Position numbers and translations under genes: made by a program. Positions 1,204 through 15,398 of a stretch of 64,000 bases of DNA are shown piece by piece (position 1 is the stretch's first letter; every line of letters begins with the position of its first letter). Source of the DNA: Escherichia phage HK6; sequence record PP724615.1, one strand, 5' to 3'. Below the pieces are notes generated by a model, which saw only the letters and a program-made list of their open reading frames with translations, had not been told where the DNA came from and did not search any database.

Positions 1204-1905
1204 TCAAATTTTCATTTTTTCGATCATAGCTGCAACACAATAGCTCTCAACTAAGGCATCGAATGCTGGATCATGTTTAACCGGATAGATCCCATAACGA
1301 ATAGTGTCCATTTTCTCCATTTTAGCGGTTGCCCAGCTAATACCTTCAGCCTCTAGCTCTTTGTAACTATATCCAGCTTGCATCCAGAGATTACGAAGAG
1401 ATCGAACATTGCCCAAATTCCAGAATTTCCACGGAACTACCTCTTCATTGGTTCCAGCATGGAAAGTGTTTGCAGAGTAGATAGTCATATCAAACTCTGG
1501 GCCATTGCCATAATACAAAGCATTATCGCCTAGAGCCAACTCCATAATATTTTGAGCCATAGAGTAGGCAGCATAGTTAGAGCCGAGTTTATTAGTACAA
1601 TGATGTTTACCGTTTTGGAATGCAATCAGCTTTGGATTACGCTCGTTCATAGCTTGCATAATGTGGATAGCAGACGGACTGTCTTTAGCTTGATCCATCC
1701 AGAATGCTAGAGTAGATGCTGTAACTTTGGCACCAGAATTAAGCTGATCCTGCACATCCAAAGTAACAAATACTAGATCAGGGTCTTTATCAATTCCATG
1801 CATAGCCACAAAAGCGAATGAAGGCATTGCGATATGAGTAGTACCACAATCTCCCGGAGTTCCCAGAGATTCAATATCTAGCATACCAAATGGTTTTACT
1901 TTCAT
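1204..1905 (-). CDS. DnaQ-like (DEDD) 3'-5' exonuclease, putative
   Basis: N-terminal 'FGMLDIESLG' matches DEDD exonuclease motif I (D-x-E). An RBS is present upstream (AAAGGATAAGTT-ATG). 233 aa. Confidence 0.45.
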   Translation of the reverse strand: MKVKPFGMLDIESLGTPGDCGTTHIAMPSFAFVAMHGIDKDPDLVFVTLDVQDQLNSGAKVTASTLAFWMDQAKDSPSAIHIMQAMNERNPKLIAFQNGKHHCTNKLGSNYAAYSMAQNIMELALGDNALYYGNGPEFDMTIYSANTFHAGTNEEVVPWKFWNLGNVRSLRNLWMQAGYSYKELEAEGISWATAKMEKMDTIRYGIYPVKHDPAFDALVESYCVAAMIEKMKI

Positions 1906-2211: not shown

Positions 2212-2427
2212 TTACTTGCCCAGCAGTTTAAGGATATTTTCCATAATAGTTTGGGCAGATTTTTCACTCTTGTTGGTTTCAGCCAACTTTAAAGCTAGTT
2301 CTTCCTGCTGTTTCTGAATATCCGCAGCAATTTTTTGATCAGCCTCAATACGAGCTTGAAGCTCATCAGTGATAGTGGTAAAGGAAGCAACGATTTCAGT
2401 AACGGAACGTGGTTTCTTAGAGAACAT
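2212..2427 (-). CDS. hypothetical coiled-coil protein (71 aa)
   Basis: ORF flanked by GGGGC-tetraloop-GCCCC hairpins. Confidence 0.4.
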   Translation of the reverse strand: MFSKKPRSVTEIVASFTTITDELQARIEADQKIAADIQKQQEELALKLAETNKSEKSAQTIMENILKLLGK

Positions 2428-2491
2428 AAAAAATATCCTTGATTAGTTAGAGAATTAGTAGATTGTAGGGGCTTCTGCCCCTATTTATCTA

Positions 2492-3007
2492 TTACTTCGC
2501 TTTACGCTTGCGAGCTGGTTTAGCAGATTTACGGGCAGAATCACCCGTGAACTTAATGCCTACACCGTAACACAGAGCGCGAACGTTATCTTTACTATAC
2601 TCTACGCCAAAGATATTTGGCTTAACAGAACCAAACTGTCCACGAGCATCACGTAGTACGTCTGCCGTTGGTTTACGCTTCTGGTTAACTGCTTTCTCAT
2701 AGTCTTTCATAGCCATGCCATTACGAGAGAACAATTCAGCCCCAGCGTTGAAGCTCAGGGAAACTGGGACAGATTTGTGGCCGTAATTTTCTACATACAT
2801 AACCATTTTGTAGGATTTACGGGTGGCATTTTTAGCTTTAGGCTTCTGACGAATCGGAGCCGGATTATTCAGTGCTTGTGCAGCCTGAGCATCGGTAGGA
2901 TGCTTACGCAGGTGGCGTTCCAGACGAGCTTTGCGATTAGCCTCGGTCTGCGGGAAAGTTTTAACTGCCGGAGCTGCTTGAGTTTTTGCGTTTTTCTGCT
3001 TAGCCAT
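2492..3007 (-). CDS. lysine-rich basic protein (171 aa), possible DNA-binding
   Basis: Both termini are strongly K/R-rich. Has its own T5-type promoter (3046-3074) and an AAAGGAAAACAAATA-ATG RBS. Confidence 0.5.
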   Translation of the reverse strand: MAKQKNAKTQAAPAVKTFPQTEANRKARLERHLRKHPTDAQAAQALNNPAPIRQKPKAKNATRKSYKMVMYVENYGHKSVPVSLSFNAGAELFSRNGMAMKDYEKAVNQKRKPTADVLRDARGQFGSVKPNIFGVEYSKDNVRALCYGVGIKFTGDSARKSAKPARKRKAK

Positions 3008-3045
3008 TATTTGTTTTCCTTTTTGTTTATCAATTTATGAAGTAT

Positions 3046-3074
3046 ATTATACGAGAATTTGAAGCGTTTAGCAA
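3046..3074 (-). promoter_or_regulatory. T5-type early promoter TTGCTA-N17-TATAAT
   Basis: On the minus strand, followed by 'ATACTTCATAAATTGATAAAC'. Confidence 0.6.
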
Positions 3075-3082
3075 ATGAATTT

Positions 3083-3532
3083 TTAATTTATTAACTGTAA
3101 GCTTCTTTTAATTTCAGACCTTACCTGCATCAAAAGAACTCCTAAAGTATTATCCCCGATGCCTCGGCAAACACCCCAATATGTATCTCCCCAGGTATTT
3201 CCTTCGATCAAAGTTGCATTTTTTGTTGCTAACAGTTTGTCCCTCAAATCAGGGATTGCAAACTTTAACCGTAAAAGCTCTAGCATTACATCATCTTTTA
3301 CCTTATCCCAGTCAGAGCGCAGAGTTAATTTACGTCCTCTACGTTTGGCAACACCTGCATTTAGGGAGCGCAGTACATGAGCTACATCATCTTTTTGGTC
3401 GGATTTCATAGCCTGAAAAGCATGTTCTACAGTATCAGCATGCCATATTTCATTCAGATATTCAAAAGTAATTGGTGATAAATAAAAGTTTGATAAGAAA
3501 CTATAAGCACCTTTAAATTCAGTAATCTTCAT
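3083..3532 (-). CDS. NADAR/YbiA (DUF1768) domain protein
   Basis: Motifs 'NTWGDTYWGVCRGIGDNTLGVLLMQVR' and 'AFQAMK' match the YbiA/NADAR N-glycosidase fold. 149 aa. Confidence 0.65.
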   Translation of the reverse strand: MKITEFKGAYSFLSNFYLSPITFEYLNEIWHADTVEHAFQAMKSDQKDDVAHVLRSLNAGVAKRRGRKLTLRSDWDKVKDDVMLELLRLKFAIPDLRDKLLATKNATLIEGNTWGDTYWGVCRGIGDNTLGVLLMQVRSEIKRSLQLIN

Positions 3533-3813
3533 TTTTTACGCCCCGCATCTTTAGCCTCTTCGGCTGTATAGATATACTGATAAGCCCCTTTGGAGTATGC
3601 TGGAGCAGTACACATTTTCTTACGCTCAATCTCTTCTTGAGCTTTTCTTTCGCGTTCAGCTAATTCTTCGTCCAGATAAACTAAACGTTGTTCTGGAGGG
3701 GGTGGAAGACGTGTTTCTGGCTCACCAATATTAGCCTTTCTTATTTGACGAGGTGATTGTGCGCGTTTTCTCAATGGTTTAAATCCTAATGAATTTGAGT
3801 TATAAATCCGCAT
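3529..3813 (-). CDS. hypothetical protein (94 aa)
   Basis: Has its own T5-type promoter (3841-3869) and a GAGGAGGGCTTT-ATG RBS. Confidence 0.45.
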   Translation of the reverse strand: MRIYNSNSLGFKPLRKRAQSPRQIRKANIGEPETRLPPPPEQRLVYLDEELAERERKAQEEIERKKMCTAPAYSKGAYQYIYTAEEAKDAGRKK

Positions 3814-3840
3814 AAAGCCCTCCTCACTTTCAATACGAAT

Positions 3841-3869
3841 ATTATACTAAATTAGAGGGCTTTAAGCAA
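3841..3869 (-). promoter_or_regulatory. T5-type early promoter TTGCTT-N17-TATAAT
   Basis: On the minus strand. Embedded in a 9-bp inverted repeat (AAAGCCCTC/GAGGGCTTT). Confidence 0.55.
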
Positions 3870-3890
3870 GAGAATTTTTCAATTTATTTA

Positions 3891-4379
3891 TCACATCTCA
3901 GCCATTTCAGCTTCAGTAATAACTGTATTACATAAGGCATCTACAGCTTCATTACCACTAATACCAGAATGTCCTTTAACCTTAATAAAGGTAGGGTTAG
4001 TATTATGAAAGTTGATATACTGCTGTGTTAATTTAAATGCTTCCTGCCAAAGTTCTAGATTAAGAGGAACTTCACCATCTGCTTTCTTCCAGCCTTTCCT
4101 TTGCCAAGAAAACATCCAACTTTCCATGCCATTTTTGCAATAAGCAGAGTCAGTATAGATAGCAATTGGTCTATTATCTTTTTTAACAGACCAACGTAGA
4201 GCTTCTACGATAGCTGTGAGTTCCATCTCATTATTTGTAGTTTTAGGATTATAACCAGATTTAGAACCTAAACGATCGTAGTTATCATCATAGACAATAA
4301 AACCCCAAGCACCTGGACCTGGGTTAGACTTACAAGCACCATCTGTGTAAATGTGGAAAACCGACATTATACCTCCCAA
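3891..4379 (-). CDS. rnhA: ribonuclease H
   Basis: RNase HI signatures 'IYTDGAC..NPGPGAWG', 'ELTAI', 'IYTDS' and 'KGHSG..GNEAVD'. Confidence 0.85.
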   Translation of the reverse strand: MGGIMSVFHIYTDGACKSNPGPGAWGFIVYDDNYDRLGSKSGYNPKTTNNEMELTAIVEALRWSVKKDNRPIAIYTDSAYCKNGMESWMFSWQRKGWKKADGEVPLNLELWQEAFKLTQQYINFHNTNPTFIKVKGHSGISGNEAVDALCNTVITEAEMAEM

Positions 4380-4648
4380 CTAATTTTAAGACCCATGTCT
4401 ACAAAGGCGGCTTCTCGGTAGTATTGTGAGAGATGATACCCCTTATCCGATAAGGTTTTTAGTACCGATTTAGCTGCTCCTGGCATTTCTCTAGGATTAT
4501 ATAGCCACCTAGCGTAAGGATTATCTCGAATAATTACTTCTGTATTTCCAGACTTAGCAGCTTCTACAATCTTTTCTTCTATAAACTTTAGAAATGCAGG
4601 TACTTCTGTTAACCCTGCAAGTTCTTGAGCTTCTTTGGCTGAAATCAT
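4367..4648 (-). CDS. hypothetical protein (93 aa)
   Basis: Has its own promoter (4674-4702) and a TTGGAGGTATA-ATG RBS. Overlaps rnhA at its 3' end. Confidence 0.5.
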   Translation of the reverse strand: MISAKEAQELAGLTEVPAFLKFIEEKIVEAAKSGNTEVIIRDNPYARWLYNPREMPGAAKSVLKTLSDKGYHLSQYYREAAFVDMGLKISWEV

Positions 4649-4741: not shown

Positions 4742-5581
4742 TTAAGAGGACATTTTAGCTTTAAGAGCTGGATGTGGATCATATCCTTCAAGTTGGAAGG
4801 ACCAAGCCGCAGTATTATTCTCTAATAAATCATAGAGATCTACAAATTCTGGCATTACTAGAGTTGGCAAAGGACGTGGTTTGCGTTTCATTTGCTCCTC
4901 TACTTGCTCTATATGATCACTGTAAATATGTGTATCTCCACCACTAAAGATGAGATAACGAGGTTTTAATCCAGTCAGTTTTGCCAGGATATGTGTTAAT
5001 AAAGCATAGCTAGCAATATTGAAAGGCAGACCTAGAAAACAGTCTACAGAACGTTGTGTCCATTTAAGGTCTAAGTATCCATCATTACTTACGTAACATT
5101 GAAAACCATAGTGACATGGTGGTAATGCCATCTTATCCAGTTCAGCTACGTTCCATGCGGATACTAGGTGTCTACGACCGTGTGGATTATTCTTGAGACC
5201 CTCAATGAGTTCTAGGATCTGATCTCGTCCACCAAAGTTACGCCATTGTTTACCATATACTGGCCCTAGATTACCATTGTCATATCCCATACTTATGGCT
5301 TGGTCTTCATAATTTGGAGTCCAGATGGTCCACTGTCCTTCGTCACGCCCAAATGTGAATACTCGCAGATCATGGAGATTTGTAGATCCAGATAAAAACC
5401 ATAAGAGTTCTCCAACTACCGACTTCCAAGCTAGACGTTTTGTAGTTACAGCTGGAAATCCCTCACGTAAATCGAACTTAGCATAGGAATCAAAAATTGA
5501 AACTGTGCCTGTTCCTGTACGGTCGTTACGTGGTTCACCTAGTAGAATTACATCTGTTAGAATTTTTAAATATTGTTGCAT
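4742..5581 (-). CDS. thyA: thymidylate synthase
   Basis: Active-site motif 'ALPPCH.GFQCYV', plus 'DLGPVYGKQWR' and a C-terminal 'DAHIY'-type region. 279 aa. Confidence 0.92.
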   Translation of the reverse strand: MQQYLKILTDVILLGEPRNDRTGTGTVSIFDSYAKFDLREGFPAVTTKRLAWKSVVGELLWFLSGSTNLHDLRVFTFGRDEGQWTIWTPNYEDQAISMGYDNGNLGPVYGKQWRNFGGRDQILELIEGLKNNPHGRRHLVSAWNVAELDKMALPPCHYGFQCYVSNDGYLDLKWTQRSVDCFLGLPFNIASYALLTHILAKLTGLKPRYLIFSGGDTHIYSDHIEQVEEQMKRKPRPLPTLVMPEFVDLYDLLENNTAAWSFQLEGYDPHPALKAKMSS

Positions 5582-6114
5582 TAATAAGTAACCAATTCCT
5601 GTACAAATCGCAGGCTGTTATCACTGTTTGCGCCAGTTGCGTAAACTAAACGAGTAGATTCATAGTTGTAATCTAGAATCGTATTATCCAGATGTACATC
5701 TGCCTCTAGTTTTTGATTACTAAAGATTGTTGATACAAAAGCACTTTCAATATGTCCATGAATATACATTTCGTACAGTAATGTTGCACCGCCTAAAACC
5801 ACTGTCTGTTGATCTTTTAAGAATGTGGGTAATGTATCTCCAATCTTTGAAATTGGGGTATAGATACCATGTTTAATATCATCAGGCAGAGGACGATCCG
5901 CACGAATAAAGAGATCAGATTCTCCAATCATACGTTGCCGAACAACTTCTGGAAGTGCTAAATAAGTACCCGCACCAATGATGATGTTATCTGGATTCAA
6001 CACGTCCAGTTGAGAATAGAAAGCATCTAGTTCTTCTTTGAAGGAACCCCAGGGGAGTTTACCTCGGAGGCCGAACTCTCCATTCGGCCCAACTGCATAT
6101 ATTGCTGTAATCAT
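5581..6114 (-). CDS. frd: dihydrofolate reductase
   Basis: N-terminal 'ITAIYAVGPNGEFGLRGKLPW' DHFR motif and a GG..L motif. 177 aa. Start/stop ATGA overlap with thyA, as in T-odd/T5 phages. Confidence 0.75.
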   Translation of the reverse strand: MITAIYAVGPNGEFGLRGKLPWGSFKEELDAFYSQLDVLNPDNIIIGAGTYLALPEVVRQRMIGESDLFIRADRPLPDDIKHGIYTPISKIGDTLPTFLKDQQTVVLGGATLLYEMYIHGHIESAFVSTIFSNQKLEADVHLDNTILDYNYESTRLVYATGANSDNSLRFVQELVTY

Positions 6115-7256
6115 AAGAAATCTCCAAATTCATTACCCAGATCTTTCAGAGTATCCGTAGAGGTCTCAGTTACCTGACCTACACGGTAGGCTGCACCAAT
6201 CTGGATTTCTTGTGGAGCAGGCTGTAAAGAAGTAGTATCCAACCAGTTCATGATCCACGGAATAGGGTTTTTGGTGATTACTGGTAAATGACTAGGCCAT
6301 TCTACACCAATGTGCATGAACGCATTACGCCCTACAAAATATAGGTACTCTTCTAGAAGTTCTGCGTTCAAACCAATCAGACTACGACCTTTGAAAATGA
6401 AATGACCCCATTCAATTTCAGTTTTCAGAGTTTTCAGGAGCTGTGCTGGTGCTTTAGCCACTGCTTCATCTACCAGATCTTTGTCAAACTGCTGGAACAT
6501 AATCTGGATGATTGCTTTAGACATCTGAGTGTGTAGAGCTTCATCTTTAGCGATTAATTGCAGATTTTTAGCAATACCTTGCAGAATATCGTTCTCTGCT
6601 AATGCAAAGGTACATGCAAAGGATGCGTAAAACTGCATTGCTTCCAGACCGTAGATCGCAAAGTAAGCATCTAATAGCTTAGCCTGAGTTTCACGTTTAA
6701 CTTCAGGGAACTCAGTTTCTGGATATGTATTGTCTCCACGATGATCGCGTACTGCGATGAAATACTGACCTAACTGGTACAGTTCATCGAATAGTTCAAC
6801 AGAATCAGCGATGCGTGCGAATGCTTCTTGGTTTTTGGTTACAGAATCAATAAATTCTGCTGGATCAGTCAGCACATTACGAATAATATTGCTATAAGCA
6901 CGACTATGCAGGTCTTCAAAATAGCTCCACTGTTTGAGCATACCTTCCAATTCTGGACGACTTACAAGGGGCATAATAGCTGCTTCAGGAGCACGACTAA
7001 TAAAGGAGTCTGTTTGAGTCTGCCATGCTAAGTTCAGGAGTGTAATTTCCTGAATTTCCCGTGGGAGATTAGGCCATTGTTTCTTATCTGCTTCCAGACT
7101 GATTTCAGTTTCAGTCCAAAATTGAGAGCGTTGCAGGAGTGCCAGACGTTCTAGTTCTGGATGTGCTACACGTACATAATCTGCGATACCGAGAGAATCT
7201 CCCAGGAAAAGGTCAGCGTTAGTATGATCCCAATTCAGGTTTAGTAAAGTAGTCAT
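6111..7256 (-). CDS. nrdB: ribonucleotide reductase class Ia beta subunit
   Basis: 'YASFACTFALAE...IAKDEALH' diiron/tyrosyl-radical region and a C-terminal acidic tail. 381 aa. Confidence 0.85.
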   Translation of the reverse strand: MTTLLNLNWDHTNADLFLGDSLGIADYVRVAHPELERLALLQRSQFWTETEISLEADKKQWPNLPREIQEITLLNLAWQTQTDSFISRAPEAAIMPLVSRPELEGMLKQWSYFEDLHSRAYSNIIRNVLTDPAEFIDSVTKNQEAFARIADSVELFDELYQLGQYFIAVRDHRGDNTYPETEFPEVKRETQAKLLDAYFAIYGLEAMQFYASFACTFALAENDILQGIAKNLQLIAKDEALHTQMSKAIIQIMFQQFDKDLVDEAVAKAPAQLLKTLKTEIEWGHFIFKGRSLIGLNAELLEEYLYFVGRNAFMHIGVEWPSHLPVITKNPIPWIMNWLDTTSLQPAPQEIQIGAAYRVGQVTETSTDTLKDLGNEFGDFL

Positions 7257-7362: not shown

Positions 7363-9693
7363 TTAAATAGTACAACCACCGGATGCACAACCGGCTGCTT
7401 CTTCTCCAGCACCTCCACCATTTGCGGTATTGAAGTTAGCATAATACCAAGTTTTCCACCCATACTTAACAGCAGTCATGAAATCACGAACCACTACTGG
7501 GCCAGGAATGATTTCATTCTCAAACTTGGTGTAGTCATAGTACATATTCGTACTGATAGACTGACTGAAGAATTTCTGCATAGTTGCTACCCACTTGATC
7601 CACTCGATACGATCTACATCATAAGCCAGTTTATAGCTCATTAACGTTTCCCAATCGGTTGCACCCGGAGCAATTGCAATTACTTTATTCACTGCACTAC
7701 CCTTGATAGATACAATCTTACGAGGCGGTTCAATAGAGTTAGTAACACCTAACAGAACAGAAGAACTTTCTCCCGGCATCTGAGCAGTCAGAACAGAGTT
7801 ACGCATACCATATTTCAGAATATCTGCACGCAGAGACTCCCAGTCCATTTCTAGACCTACGGATACCAGTTCATCAACAGTTTTCTTGTACGTGTCGATT
7901 ACCAGAATTCCTTTAGATGGTTTAGTACGATCAAACCACTCACATGCACCCTGTTCTTTAGCTAGTCGTACAGAGGCTTTATGCAGGAAGTAAGACAGTT
8001 TTTCAGCCTCACGGTGAATCCAGTTACGGGCTTCAATACCTTCATAAGCCAGACCTTCTGCTGCCATTGCACCTGCTGCGTTCATTAGTCCAATACCAAC
8101 ATTACGACGTTTCTTAGCCGTATATTCCATAGTTGGGAACGGATAATCCTGAATTTCAATAATTGTATCAACGAATTTCAGAAGGATGTAGCAAGTTTTT
8201 TCCCACTCAGCTAGTGATTCCATACGTCCAAGTACAACACCACCTAAGTTACACAAAGATACTTCACCAATATCCTCCGGTTTCATTTGATCAAGCTGCT
8301 CTTTTGTCTTATACAGCTCTGTGATATGATGGAACGGGCGTGTAGGCTGAGTAATTTCAACACAAAGGTTTGTCATACGGATCGGATCAAGGAAATTACC
8401 GTGACGATTAGATTCCCCGATGTGATGAGCATACATACGTCCTGTTTCCATTCGGATACGTAGCCAAGTATCTAGGATTTCTTTTGCAGAGACTTTAGGA
8501 GCTGCAGGAACTGTTTTTCCTTCGTGGTCGATCTTTGTAAGAGATGCCACACGTTTCTCCGCTGCCACGTAGATTTCTTCAAATTTAGCCTCGTCATCAC
8601 TATAAAACGCTTCATGAACTTCTGGAGCATAGAAGTATGACATTAGCGTAATATCTTCGTTTTTAAGATAACGTTTTAACAAAAGATTGTTAAAGCTCAG
8701 AGAATAATCCATCTTATCGATTTTATTCTCATCTGTAGCACGTTGTTGCTTAACCTGCATCAATTGAATGATTTCAGGGTCGAAGTATGGATAAGACACT
8801 GTAGCAGAACCACCACGAGTTTGCTGAGTATTGGCCTTTACTGAGCGGTCAATGTGTCGATAATATGGCAGTTTTCCGGAATGCGGGAATGCCCCATTTC
8901 GCACCGGATCAGCAATTGATCGGCTTTCAAGATGATACCCGATTCCCGCTCTGGCTGCGACCATTTTGAAGACGATGTGCTCGGCGGTGTCGATTGAATC
9001 CAACGTGTCAGTGGAATCCACGAGGCAGCAACTAGCAAATCCACGGTCACTAGAGCGCAGACCAACCAGTGGCGGCGTAGGAACGTTGATTTTGTGGAGT
9101 GACATTGCGTTGTAGAGATCGATTGCATCTAGAATTGTCCAGTTAGGTTGAGATAGCATCGCCATTGCCATACCCATGTAGGCAAACTGCGGAGTTTCGT
9201 AAATTTCACCAGTGGCTATGTTACGACGGGAATACTTATCAAAGAACTGCTTCAGTCCACCACTAGTAAAAAGACGGTCACGATCATGGTCGATAACCTG
9301 ATTCAGAGCTTCAAATTGCTCATCGGTAATCCATGCACTCATGTCTTCCCATGCACCTACGCTAACCATATGGTCATGGAAGAAGCGTAGAGAAGGTGGT
9401 TCGAAAGAATCATAAAGGCGTTTACGCATTTGCGCAAGACGTAATTCCTTTGCTGGCACATCATATGCTGGATTATCTTTAATAAGACTTTCAGCAGCTT
9501 TAATTAATGCATCCATCAGAGTGTCGGAATCTACAACCCCTTTAGGCAGAGTTTTTTGAGCAGCCATAGTAATGGCTGACCAACTTACATCAACTGTTTT
9601 GCAACCATACTCTGCCCAACCATTGATTTTTTCAGGAGCAAAGTCTTCTACAGTACCGTCACGTTTAATTACTTTTTCAATGCGATGGCTCAT
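7363..9693 (-). CDS. nrdA: ribonucleotide reductase class Ia alpha subunit
   Basis: ATP-cone start 'MSHRIEKVIKRDGTVE', large catalytic domain and C-terminal Cys pair 'CASGGC'. The start was moved to the ATG at 9693, which has an AAGGAAAG RBS. The ORF-track start at 9798 is an upstream in-frame ATG without an RBS. Confidence 0.9.
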   Translation of the reverse strand: MSHRIEKVIKRDGTVEDFAPEKINGWAEYGCKTVDVSWSAITMAAQKTLPKGVVDSDTLMDALIKAAESLIKDNPAYDVPAKELRLAQMRKRLYDSFEPPSLRFFHDHMVSVGAWEDMSAWITDEQFEALNQVIDHDRDRLFTSGGLKQFFDKYSRRNIATGEIYETPQFAYMGMAMAMLSQPNWTILDAIDLYNAMSLHKINVPTPPLVGLRSSDRGFASCCLVDSTDTLDSIDTAEHIVFKMVAARAGIGYHLESRSIADPVRNGAFPHSGKLPYYRHIDRSVKANTQQTRGGSATVSYPYFDPEIIQLMQVKQQRATDENKIDKMDYSLSFNNLLLKRYLKNEDITLMSYFYAPEVHEAFYSDDEAKFEEIYVAAEKRVASLTKIDHEGKTVPAAPKVSAKEILDTWLRIRMETGRMYAHHIGESNRHGNFLDPIRMTNLCVEITQPTRPFHHITELYKTKEQLDQMKPEDIGEVSLCNLGGVVLGRMESLAEWEKTCYILLKFVDTIIEIQDYPFPTMEYTAKKRRNVGIGLMNAAGAMAAEGLAYEGIEARNWIHREAEKLSYFLHKASVRLAKEQGACEWFDRTKPSKGILVIDTYKKTVDELVSVGLEMDWESLRADILKYGMRNSVLTAQMPGESSSVLLGVTNSIEPPRKIVSIKGSAVNKVIAIAPGATDWETLMSYKLAYDVDRIEWIKWVATMQKFFSQSISTNMYYDYTKFENEIIPGPVVVRDFMTAVKYGWKTWYYANFNTANGGGAGEEAAGCASGGCTI

Positions 9694-9835
9694 TTGGCTT
9701 TCCTTTTTATAGTTATCAGGATTTAAGGAATATTCTACTTTATTATCGGTCATTAGGCAAATAAAATTTTCTGATAGAAAAGGCCCGAGTATTTTCATAC
9801 CCAGGCCCTGTATATTACCAGTCTAGCTTTTTAGC

Positions 9836-13717: not shown

Positions 13718-13907
13718 GGGTTTAAACGCCGCTTTGGAAAACGCATTAATGCAGCACTGGGAAACTGGCTATAAGGATGGTGTTGAATCCTGCGCTACTA
13801 TGCTAGAAGTTATTGCTAATACCTTAATGGAGAAAGGCAATAAAGAATTAGCTGAGCTATTAGATAGTATTGGGCAAAACTTCAGAGAACAGGTGAAAAA
13901 TGCGTAG
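13686..13907 (+). CDS. hypothetical protein (73 aa)
   Basis: ORF overlapping its neighbours by a few codons, typical of phage operon packing. Confidence 0.35.
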   Translation: MAFSKPMLPDKGLNAALENALMQHWETGYKDGVESCATMLEVIANTLMEKGNKELAELLDSIGQNFREQVKNA

Positions 13908-14736
13908 ATTAATTATTATTAGTGGTGCAGGTTTGAGTGTTGAAAGTGGTGTACGAGCTTTTCGTACTAATACTGCTAGCGGTAAAGCATTGTGGGATGA
14001 TTATGATCTAGAAGAAGTATGTAATATTCATGCCTTTCGTGGTAATTTTTATCATAAAACCCATATGTTTTACAACAAGCGTCGTGAAGAGCTAAAAACT
14101 GTTGAACCCAATCTTGCGCATTTGCGTATTGGTGAATGGTATAAACAATATCCAGGTCAAGTAGTAAACTTGACTACCAACGTTGATGACCTTATTGAGC
14201 GTGCTGGCGTTTCACATAGTGACATTCTGCACATTCACGGATATTTAAAAGAGGTTGTTGTAGCTGATAGCTACAATAGTAGCAATAAACGGATTATTGA
14301 TGTAGGATACAGTTCTATCGATCCGGATGATTATAAATGGGTTAAACCTAATGTAATCTTCTTTGGAGAGCATGCTCCAGCATATGCAGAAATGTACAAT
14401 GTTTTTGATGGTATTACCAGTCAAGATATGATTGTTGTGGTTGGTTGTTCTAACCAAGTAATTAACTTCTACTGGGAATTATTTCCTGTTCTTAATTTGA
14501 CTGCTGCGAAACTTATGGTTGTTAACTACCATGATAGTGCCCTCGCAGCGGAACCGGGCTATCAAGGTATGACTCGTAGTGAGATGTACCAGCTGGAGGA
14601 ACGCGGTATCCCTTACTGGAGTAAAGGTGCGGTAGATGCTTTCAGTGACCCTGATTTTATTGCTCGTGTAGAAGCTCATTTAGAGGGTAGACCTTATGTG
14701 TTGAGAAGCAAGGGAAACAGATATGTCCATAGTTAA
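13900..14736 (+). CDS. SIR2-family NAD-binding protein (sirtuin-like)
   Basis: N-terminal 'IISGAGLSVESGVRAFR' matches the sirtuin GAGIS-ESGIP-FR motif, and 'ILHIHGYL' matches the catalytic HG motif. No Zn-ribbon cysteines. 278 aa. Confidence 0.6.
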   Translation: MRRLIIISGAGLSVESGVRAFRTNTASGKALWDDYDLEEVCNIHAFRGNFYHKTHMFYNKRREELKTVEPNLAHLRIGEWYKQYPGQVVNLTTNVDDLIERAGVSHSDILHIHGYLKEVVVADSYNSSNKRIIDVGYSSIDPDDYKWVKPNVIFFGEHAPAYAEMYNVFDGITSQDMIVVVGCSNQVINFYWELFPVLNLTAAKLMVVNYHDSALAAEPGYQGMTRSEMYQLEERGIPYWSKGAVDAFSDPDFIARVEAHLEGRPYVLRSKGNRYVHS

Positions 14737-14905
14737 ATCTGTATATACACATCCCGATGACATATTTGTATGGGCAGATGGTAGTTGGTGCTATCGATGT
14801 GAGTTATGGGAAATGGACTATAAATCCGATGACTATGGCGTCATATATGTTGATACGGTTGAGTATGATACGTTCTTAGAAAGGAACAAAAATGGAAATA
14901 AGTAA
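14723..14905 (+). CDS. hypothetical protein (60 aa)
   Basis: Short ORF, weak support. Confidence 0.3.
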   Translation: MSIVKSVYTHPDDIFVWADGSWCYRCELWEMDYKSDDYGVIYVDTVEYDTFLERNKNGNK

Positions 14906-15398
14906 TACTCCAATTATTTTTCTAGATATTGATGGGGTGCTCAATTCGAGCATCTCCCACCATCATGCACCTGATAATGAAAAGATTTTCTTTGGAAGTG
15001 ACTGGGTTTTCAAACCGCTTCTCAAGGCTTTTCAGGATTTTATTCGTCCTTCTCCGATAATGATTGTTGGAGTATCCTCATGGTTCTCTGTCAGGAATGA
15101 GATGGAAAACGTTCAGATTATGACCGGATTAGGTCTTATCGATCGTTTTCTTGGTACAACGGATTTTACTGGGGGTGGATTATCTAGGGGTAATTCTGTT
15201 CTTCGCTTCGTTGAAAAGCATAAGCTCAAACATTGGTGTGTGCTTGATGATGCTGGTGCTATGATGTATCAGTATCCAACGGTTATAGTCAACGGTAGGA
15301 CTGGGATAAATCTTCAAGATTTAAAAGCTGTTAGCTATATGCTAGAATTTAGCCCAGATCTTGAAATGTGTAAATCCTTACAACAATTTAAGGTGTAA
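14892..15398 (+). CDS. HAD-superfamily phosphatase, putative
   Basis: 'IIFLDIDGVLNS' matches HAD motif I (DxDGT/V), and 'VLDDAG' is a motif IV-like segment. 168 aa. Confidence 0.5.
   Translation: MEISNTPIIFLDIDGVLNSSISHHHAPDNEKIFFGSDWVFKPLLKAFQDFIRPSPIMIVGVSSWFSVRNEMENVQIMTGLGLIDRFLGTTDFTGGGLSRGNSVLRFVEKHKLKHWCVLDDAGAMMYQYPTVIVNGRTGINLQDLKAVSYMLEFSPDLEMCKSLQQFKV

Follow-up and report, generated by a model that had tools for sequence, protein, structure and literature searches.

The toxin DarT1 attaches ADP-ribose to the N2 of guanine and NADAR proteins hydrolyse this bond (Schuller et al. 2023, PMC11543638), whereas DarT2 modifies thymidine, a modification that is reversed by the macrodomain protein DarG2 (PMC11543638, PMC12945103). 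Among phages the founding anti-DarTG1 NADAR is AdfN^T4 (T4 gp30.3), which requires a T-even-specific context and cannot neutralise DarT1 alone; the Bas32 type can (Johannesman, Awasthi, Carlson and LeRoux, Nat Commun 2025, PMC11825919). The phages Bas32 and Bas33, referred to in that paper as "Markadamsvirinae closely related to T5", encode identical NADARs which were named AdfN^Bas32. Expressed from a plasmid, AdfN^Bas32 neutralises DarT1 in uninfected E. coli (Fig. 5 of PMC11825919) and lets RB69, T5 and Bas25 plaque again at full titre on hosts with DarTG1, while the plaquing of T5 on a DarTG2 host is unaffected. The evidence for AdfN^Bas32 in the main text of PMC11825919 comes from ectopic expression, and neither a knockout in the native phages Bas32 or Bas33 nor an in vitro assay specific to the Bas32 protein is described there. 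The literature was also searched for subsequent studies of AdfN in T5-like phages, in particular native knockouts, and apart from the 2025 paper itself only a confirmation by T4 HIDEN-SEQ emerged.

Here we analysed 64,000 nucleotides of Escherichia phage HK6 (PP724615.1), and this whole stretch is called the window in the following. A pairwise alignment of the 149-aa protein encoded at the locus of interest (Table 1) with bas33_0070 (QXV80081.1) extends over the full length without gaps and shows 148 identical residues out of 149. The sole difference is at residue 9, alanine in the HK6 protein and threonine in Bas33, and this column, in which E, D, Q, P, R, N and A occur, is among the most variable of the family. 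The function published in 2025 is that of a protein differing by one residue at a variable position. A tblastn search of the phage collection found copies of 95% identity or more in 95 records; in 49 of these the identity is at least 99%, and in some it is 100%. The copy in MZ501074 (Escherichia phage HildyBeyeler) is 99.3% identical, and this record was recognised by its bas33_ locus tags as the BASEL phage Bas33, which establishes the link to AdfN^Bas32. Bas33 belongs to the same phage group as HK6 (Markadamsvirinae, Tequintavirus), and its gene occupies the same slot, flanked by the T5.090 ortholog on one side and the DUF7022 gene on the other, with the same neighbours. HK6 is, however, a slur09/phiP4-like isolate and not Bas33 itself.

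The sequence-only reading of this DNA had proposed a phage NADAR that reverses DNA ADP-ribosylation as a countermeasure against DarT. This central claim is borne out by the experiments on the nearly identical AdfN^Bas32 (PMC11825919). The reading had furthermore ascribed the guanine modification to DarT2-type toxins; the removal of ADP-ribose from guanine stands, but the toxin that installs it is DarT1 and not DarT2 (PMC11543638, PMC12945103). Since AdfN^Bas32 gave no rescue on the DarTG2 host, a plaque test of HK6 is expected to be positive on DarTG1 and negative on DarTG2 hosts. We consider it very probable that the HK6 protein is a stand-alone ADP-ribosyl glycohydrolase of the NADAR fold, an "orphan antitoxin" of the AdfN type which counters DarTG1 but not DarTG2.

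In the ORF listing of the window the gene appears as an ATG-initiated reading frame on the minus strand. The motifs quoted from the sequence before, HAFQAMK and EGNTWGDTYWGVCRGIGDNTLGVLLMQVR, are both found exactly in its translation. The protein matches the Pfam family NADAR (PF08719, DUF1768) with 78.9 bits (E 6.9e-22; profile positions 9-163 of 163), well above the gathering cut-off of 35.1 bits, as well as PHROG 1017 (E 8e-45), a family labelled "unknown function". Sequence matches in the PDB are E. coli YbiA (2B3W, E 3.5e-15) and the NADAR of Phytophthora nicotianae (PnNADAR; 8BAU, E 6.7e-7), and a large protein collection contains 1037 homologues at E <= 1e-5. Because of these Pfam, PHROG and PDB matches and the number of homologues a chance reading frame is excluded and the ORF is a genuine gene. 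An identity with the anti-phage-defence NADAR DS32_2 (NCBIfam NF053876) was also considered and rejected, the score being 44.9 bits against a curated cut-off of 240. PADLOC returned for the NADAR protein a weak match to PDC-M42C alone (27.7 bits).

An AlphaFold2 model of the protein, calculated from an alignment of 36 sequences with homologues 47-60% identical, has a mean pLDDT of 97.3 and a pTM of 0.90. A Foldseek search of this model against the PDB gave two matches with E < 1e-3, namely YbiA (2B3W, TM 0.82, 37% identity) and the PnNADAR-ADP-ribose complex (8BAU, TM 0.78). The comparison with NADAR structures that had been suggested from the sequence thus points to the same family, and the model displays the YbiA-like alpha-helical core flanked by small beta-sheets which defines the NADAR superfamily. 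In PnNADAR the catalytic and ADP-ribose-binding residues comprise E43 and K50, spaced seven residues apart, a second acidic residue, E125, and the phosphate and adenine ligands K75, R79, W89, D130 and W133 (PMC11543638). The corresponding residues of the HK6 protein are listed in Table 1; at the catalytic Glu and Lys the register with 8BAU was taken from the family-profile alignment, the pairwise phmmer alignment being out of register there. The YbiA residues E48, K55, E125, D130 and W133 align likewise with active-site residues of the HK6 protein. Six of the residues (E36, K43, K63, E110, D116 and W119) are invariant in all 36 family sequences. The catalytic residues are hence alignable with those of PnNADAR, YbiA and, for E36 and K43, AdfN^T4; had they not been, the proposal made from the sequence would have failed.

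This conservation also bears on the question whether the NADAR fold could be a mere scaffold of a non-enzymatic inhibitor which, like AdfA, binds DarT1. A further phage NADAR mentioned by Johannesman et al. differs from theirs in needing no enzymatic activity (PMC11825919). However, the invariance of the catalytic and ADP-ribose-binding columns among relatives which are 47-60% identical indicates selection on catalysis, and AdfN^T4 does not bind DarT1 and needs E36 and K43 for full activity (PMC11825919). A purely binding function of the HK6 protein is in our opinion extremely unlikely.

The enzymatic AdfN-type assignment can be refined by comparison with the described NADAR groups. AdfN^T4 shares with the HK6 protein the fold family, the specificity for guanine-linked ADP-ribose and the counter-defence logic (PMC11825919), and its mutationally tested residues E36 and K43 align with E36 and K43 of the HK6 protein, the equal numbering being coincidental. 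The relationship is nevertheless remote: hhalign gives a probability of 81.6% with 19% identity over an alignment covering residues 10-106. In the T4 clade the second catalytic Glu is replaced by His (PMC11543638, PMC11825919), whereas the HK6 protein keeps E110, a contrast that was established by eye and from these papers as the hhalign alignment ends at residue 106. With 19% identity and a Glu instead of the His, the HK6 protein was not assigned to the gp30.3-like clade.

DarG1 (BC4488 family; E. coli C7 and G. lovleyi) catalyses the same hydrolysis of guanine-N2-linked ADP-ribose, and its residues E88, K95 and K115 have conserved equivalents in the HK6 protein (PMC11543638). In contrast to DarG1 the HK6 protein lacks the N-terminal beta-beta-alpha extension, with the LSNF motif following from residue 13, and it carries E110 where DarG1 has an Asp (D171, PMC11543638); position 110 is Glu in 36 of 36 relatives. 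Moreover DarG1 is paired with an adjacent darT1, and no darT gene neighbours the HK6 gene. The HK6 protein was for these three reasons not placed with the DarG1/BC4488 type. The G. lovleyi DarG1-type NADAR was not retrieved from the PDB by sequence-profile or Foldseek searches and DarG1 was compared by means of the residue descriptions in PMC11543638.

Over the 2.1 kb around the NADAR gene HK6 shares 99% identity with slur09 and phiP4, two Escherichia phages, and 95-98% with many T5-like phages of Salmonella and Escherichia (Demerecviridae, Markadamsvirinae, Tequintavirus). The early nucleotide-metabolism context recognised in the sequence-only reading is confirmed by the genes for RNase H, thymidylate synthase, dihydrofolate reductase and the two ribonucleotide reductase subunits, all of which lie on the same strand (Table 1). 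The leftward block consisting of nrdA, nrdB, DHFR, thymidylate synthase, a small ORF and RNase H is colinear with T5.096 to T5.089. No ART-like or darT gene adjoins the NADAR gene, which therefore is an orphan in this phage; its neighbours are the T5.090 ortholog, the DUF7022 gene, RNase H, thymidylate synthase, DHFR and the ribonucleotide reductase genes.

Table 1. Features of the HK6 NADAR locus (positions in the window) and active-site residues of the encoded protein
Feature	Position	Strand	Remarks
adfN-type NADAR gene (149 aa), ortholog of bas33_0070/AdfN^Bas32, predicted guanine-ADP-ribose DNA glycohydrolase	3083..3532	-	ORF, Pfam, 148/149 identity, model, invariant active-site columns
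Accessory cassette: NADAR gene and 3' end of 94-aa ORF	3085..3574		blastn; about 45 bp instead in T5 and chee24
94-aa ORF, T5.090 ortholog, directly upstream of NADAR	3529..3813	-	orthologs in chee24, UTK0009 and T5
GGGG, Shine-Dalgarno-like element, inside the end of the 94-aa ORF	3541..3544	-	8 nt upstream of NADAR ATG; minus strand ...GATGCGGGGCGTAAAAA-ATG
Probable promoter region TTGCTT..17..TATAAT upstream of 94-aa ORF	3814..3890	-	near-identical to promoter upstream of T5.090 in the T5 record
Promoter-like TTGCTA-17-TATAAT just downstream of NADAR stop	3046..3074	-	scan, 10/12 matches; identical to T5 P-H 207
RNase H	3891-4379	-	same strand as NADAR
Thymidylate synthase	4742-5581	-	same strand as NADAR
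DHFR	5581-6114	-	same strand as NADAR
nrdB	6111-7256	-	same strand as NADAR
nrdA	7363-9798	-	same strand as NADAR
E36 = PnNADAR E43			profile alignment; roles from PMC11543638
K43 = PnNADAR K50			profile alignment; roles from PMC11543638
K63 = PnNADAR K75			profile alignment; roles from PMC11543638
R67 = PnNADAR R79			profile alignment; roles from PMC11543638
W75 = PnNADAR W89			profile alignment; roles from PMC11543638
E110 = PnNADAR E125			profile alignment; roles from PMC11543638
D116 = PnNADAR D130			profile alignment; roles from PMC11543638
W119 = PnNADAR W133			profile alignment; roles from PMC11543638

Directly upstream of the NADAR gene lies the 94-aa T5.090 ortholog, for which matches in Pfam and PADLOC were looked for and none were found. 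Its TGA stop codon overlaps the ATG of the NADAR gene in the sequence ATGA at 3529-3532 (tcat on the plus strand), and this overlap suggests that translation of the NADAR is coupled to that of the T5.090 ortholog. The region in front of the 94-aa ORF was not listed by a simple promoter scan and was assigned through its homology to the promoter annotated in T5; it probably serves as the promoter of a two-gene unit consisting of the 94-aa ORF and the NADAR gene. Between these two genes the scan found no terminator-like site on the minus strand, the lone match in the interval being located on the plus strand (3624-3642). The promoter-like element behind the NADAR stop codon corresponds to T5 P-H 207, which drives the next gene (DUF7022), and it marks the 3' limit of the cassette. 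Judged from this arrangement of sequence signals, the NADAR gene most likely comes second on an early transcript of two genes.

Several other gene products in the window were noticed along the way. Downstream of the cassette there is the DUF7022 protein (2492-3007, minus strand, 256 bits) and, further on, a protein with an Rv2179c-like 3'-5' exoribonuclease domain (1204-1905, minus strand, 34 bits), whose relatives are labelled "exonuclease" or "metallopeptidase". The RNase H reading frame as called mechanically has a TTG start and 162 aa, whereas the related records all have 477 bp (158 aa) and begin at an ATG four codons downstream (MSVFH...). About 10 kb from the NADAR gene a SIR2-family (NAD-dependent) protein is encoded on the plus strand (13900-14736, 88 bits), and T5 has an annotated Sir2 at the equivalent place; it is followed by a protein with a HAD_SAK_2 "Swiss-army-knife RNA repair" HAD domain (14892-15398, plus strand, 72 bits). 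These two genes represent further NAD-linked chemistry in the same phage.

The NADAR gene is not a general constituent of T5-like phages. When HK6 was compared by blastn with phage chee24, the flanks 2400-3084 and 3574-4500 aligned at 96%, and the 489 bp in between (3085-3573) corresponded to 45 bp. The result with T5 was the same, as the flanks 2467-3084 and 3575-4370 aligned and 3085-3574 corresponded to 46 bp; a tblastn search of 27 kb of T5 likewise found no NADAR gene. T5 is sensitive to DarTG1 (PMC11825919), and the lack of the cassette fits this sensitivity. In the phage records matching the locus, 91 of 441 have a coverage of at least 80%, and the others align as two separate segments and lack about 450 bp. 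The NADAR gene is thus part of a 489-bp accessory cassette that is absent from T5 and from about 80% of the T5-like records.

The cassette extends into the upstream gene. The last approximately 15 residues of the 94-aa ORF read ...YQYIYTAEEAKDAGRKK when the cassette is present and ...YQYVSDAEQAKMVGR when it is not, and the corresponding codons of the T5.090 ortholog, at 3529-3573 in the window, read ...YIYTAEEAKDAGRKK with and ...YVSDAEQAKMVGR without the NADAR cassette. The end of the upstream gene, with the ATGA overlap and the Shine-Dalgarno-like GGGG, was therefore supplied by the cassette itself. The Salmonella phage vB_SenS_UTK0009 (Epseptimavirus, OQ359889.1) encodes a 149-aa NADAR of 60% identity (2489-2938 of the examined locus) which is located between RNase H and the T5.090 ortholog and hence one slot upstream of the position in HK6. 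Because the UTK0009 gene occupies this different slot, the comparison suggests that NADAR genes of the HK6 type and of the UTK0009 type were inserted independently into the same short interval.

The distribution of the gene is also relevant to a metabolic function, since a role in the salvage of riboflavin intermediates had been offered as a second option in the sequence-only reading. The protein would then be a YbiA-like housekeeping N-glycosidase destroying or salvaging reactive intermediates of the riboflavin pathway during infection. E. coli YbiA is indeed the best solved relative (profile E 1.3e-36, in addition to the sequence and structure matches given above) and represents the minimal core of the NADAR fold without extensions, and nucleotide-metabolism genes adjoin the NADAR gene. 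YbiA is chromosomal and lies in a LexA-controlled operon, whereas the HK6 NADAR is encoded by a phage accessory gene. A dispensable gene missing from T5 and most of its relatives fits a conditional counter-defence role and not core metabolism, and no riboflavin genes are found near the locus in the window. TIGR02464 ("riboflavin biosynthesis intermediates N-glycosidase") is matched with 66.5 bits, below the curated equivalog cut-off of 73.7, and the HK6 protein was not counted among the YbiA-type riboflavin N-glycosidases. Although YbiA hydrolyses guanine-linked ADP-ribose in vitro, it does not protect cells from DarT1 (PMC11125620), whereas the 99.3%-identical Bas32 protein rescues (PMC11825919) and is placed outside the YbiA group in the published phylogeny (PMC11825919). 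The riboflavin option is accordingly weak, and we regard it as very unlikely.

With respect to the origin of the AdfN-type gene, the closest cellular relatives reach no more than 54% identity and are scattered over Acidobacteria (Bryobacterales), Planctomycetes, Firmicutes, Pseudomonadales and a few archaea; a close enterobacterial donor is not among the cellular homologues. AdfN^Bas32 has been placed near archaeal NADARs (PMC11825919). Several genomes, among them the metagenome-assembled genomes of a member of the Bryobacterales (OZ241991.1) and of the Azotimanducaceae (OZ241908.1), carry at least four NADAR copies per chromosome. Recurrent neighbours of the cellular homologues are DUF3560 and DUF3085, and in Lachnospiraceae loci LPD11. 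These three domains are typical of the "polyvalent protein" regions of conjugative elements and phages. Beside the 80 closest cellular homologues no ART-toxin partner was seen, the high-GC loci giving many spurious ORFs. The multi-copy cellular loci have the appearance of repeated mobile elements and not of toxin-antitoxin pairs.

These neighbourhoods, which resemble mobile elements and have no DarT partner, lend some weight to a wider substrate range of the HK6 protein. It could be a broader de-ADP-ribosylase of nucleic acids for which DarT1 damage is one target and which in nature acts mainly against other ADP-ribosylating toxins, for instance guanine- or cytidine-modifying ARTs resembling pierisin and ScARP or RNA-targeting ARTs. 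To our knowledge no alternative ART toxin serves as phage defence in E. coli or Salmonella, which counts against this extension. All tested NADAR families remove guanine-linked ADP-ribose from DNA and RNA, and general NADARs as well as YbiA-type members also remove cytidine-linked ADP-ribose in vitro (PMC12945103), so that in nature the enzyme may act on other substrates besides DarT1 damage, or even mainly on these. At position 110 the HK6 protein retains the Glu of the YbiA and general type and has neither the Asp of DarG1 nor the His of the T4 type, and Johannesman et al. suggest that enzymes of this kind act irrespective of the toxin placing the modification (PMC11825919). However, the sole phenotype tested is directed against DarTG1 and is strong, with full rescue of the titre (PMC11825919). 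A broad activity is possible though rather unlikely, and it would widen the explanation as an anti-DarTG1 enzyme and not replace it. A still more far-reaching proposal, which we consider doubtful, is that the interval between rnh and the DUF7022 gene (T5.089) constitutes a small anti-defence hot-spot with at least two NADAR captures and that this NADAR clade generally erases ADP-ribose from bases (guanine and cytidine, in DNA and RNA), shielding incoming mobile DNA from ARTs beyond DarT1.

For the anti-DarTG1 function the following course of events can be envisaged. After infection the NADAR gene would be transcribed together with the early genes, following the T5.090 ortholog as second cistron, a timing suggested by the gene order and the conserved T5 promoters. 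DarT1 released from the host DarTG1 system would ADP-ribosylate the guanine N2 of the phage DNA, and replication would be blocked. The NADAR protein would then bind the ADP-ribose, with K43, K63, R67 and W75/W119 contacting the phosphates and the adenine and with E36 and E110 at the distal ribose, and would cleave the N-glycosidic bond between ribose and guanine, leaving unmodified DNA on which replication could proceed. ADP-ribose linked to thymine would not be removed and DarTG2 would not be countered. The roles of the individual residues are proposed here by analogy to PnNADAR, DarG1 and AdfN^T4, and we infer that in the native phage the gene affords protection in this way.

In the public records the NADAR gene is annotated inconsistently, as "swarming motility protein YbiA", "GTP cyclohydrolase II", "N-glycosidase", "DUF1768 domain-containing protein" and "hypothetical protein". 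The small ORFs beside it appear there as "tail length tape-measure protein", "baseplate wedge subunit", "virion structural protein" and "DksA C4-type domain-containing protein", and these labels on early-region proteins of 70-170 aa look spurious. The record OR848833.1 ("Listeria phage LM 4-14-1", 3468 bp) contains a NADAR of 100% identity with flanks that are 96% identical to T5-like enterobacterial phages, and it is probably a mislabelled or contaminant fragment.

Since the function of an essentially identical protein has been known from the literature since 2025, the locus raises no new biological question. The additions made here are descriptive: they delimit the cassette, point to translational coupling, show that the promoters are conserved, add a second site of insertion, that of UTK0009, and document the mislabelling of the records. 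The value lies in gene annotation, most GenBank records mislabelling a phage counter-defence gene, and in the prediction of host range. The approximately one fifth of the sequenced T5-like phages which carry the cassette should escape DarTG1, while T5 and the remaining phages should not, and this escape is relevant when T5-like phages are selected for therapy or for the biocontrol of E. coli and Salmonella.
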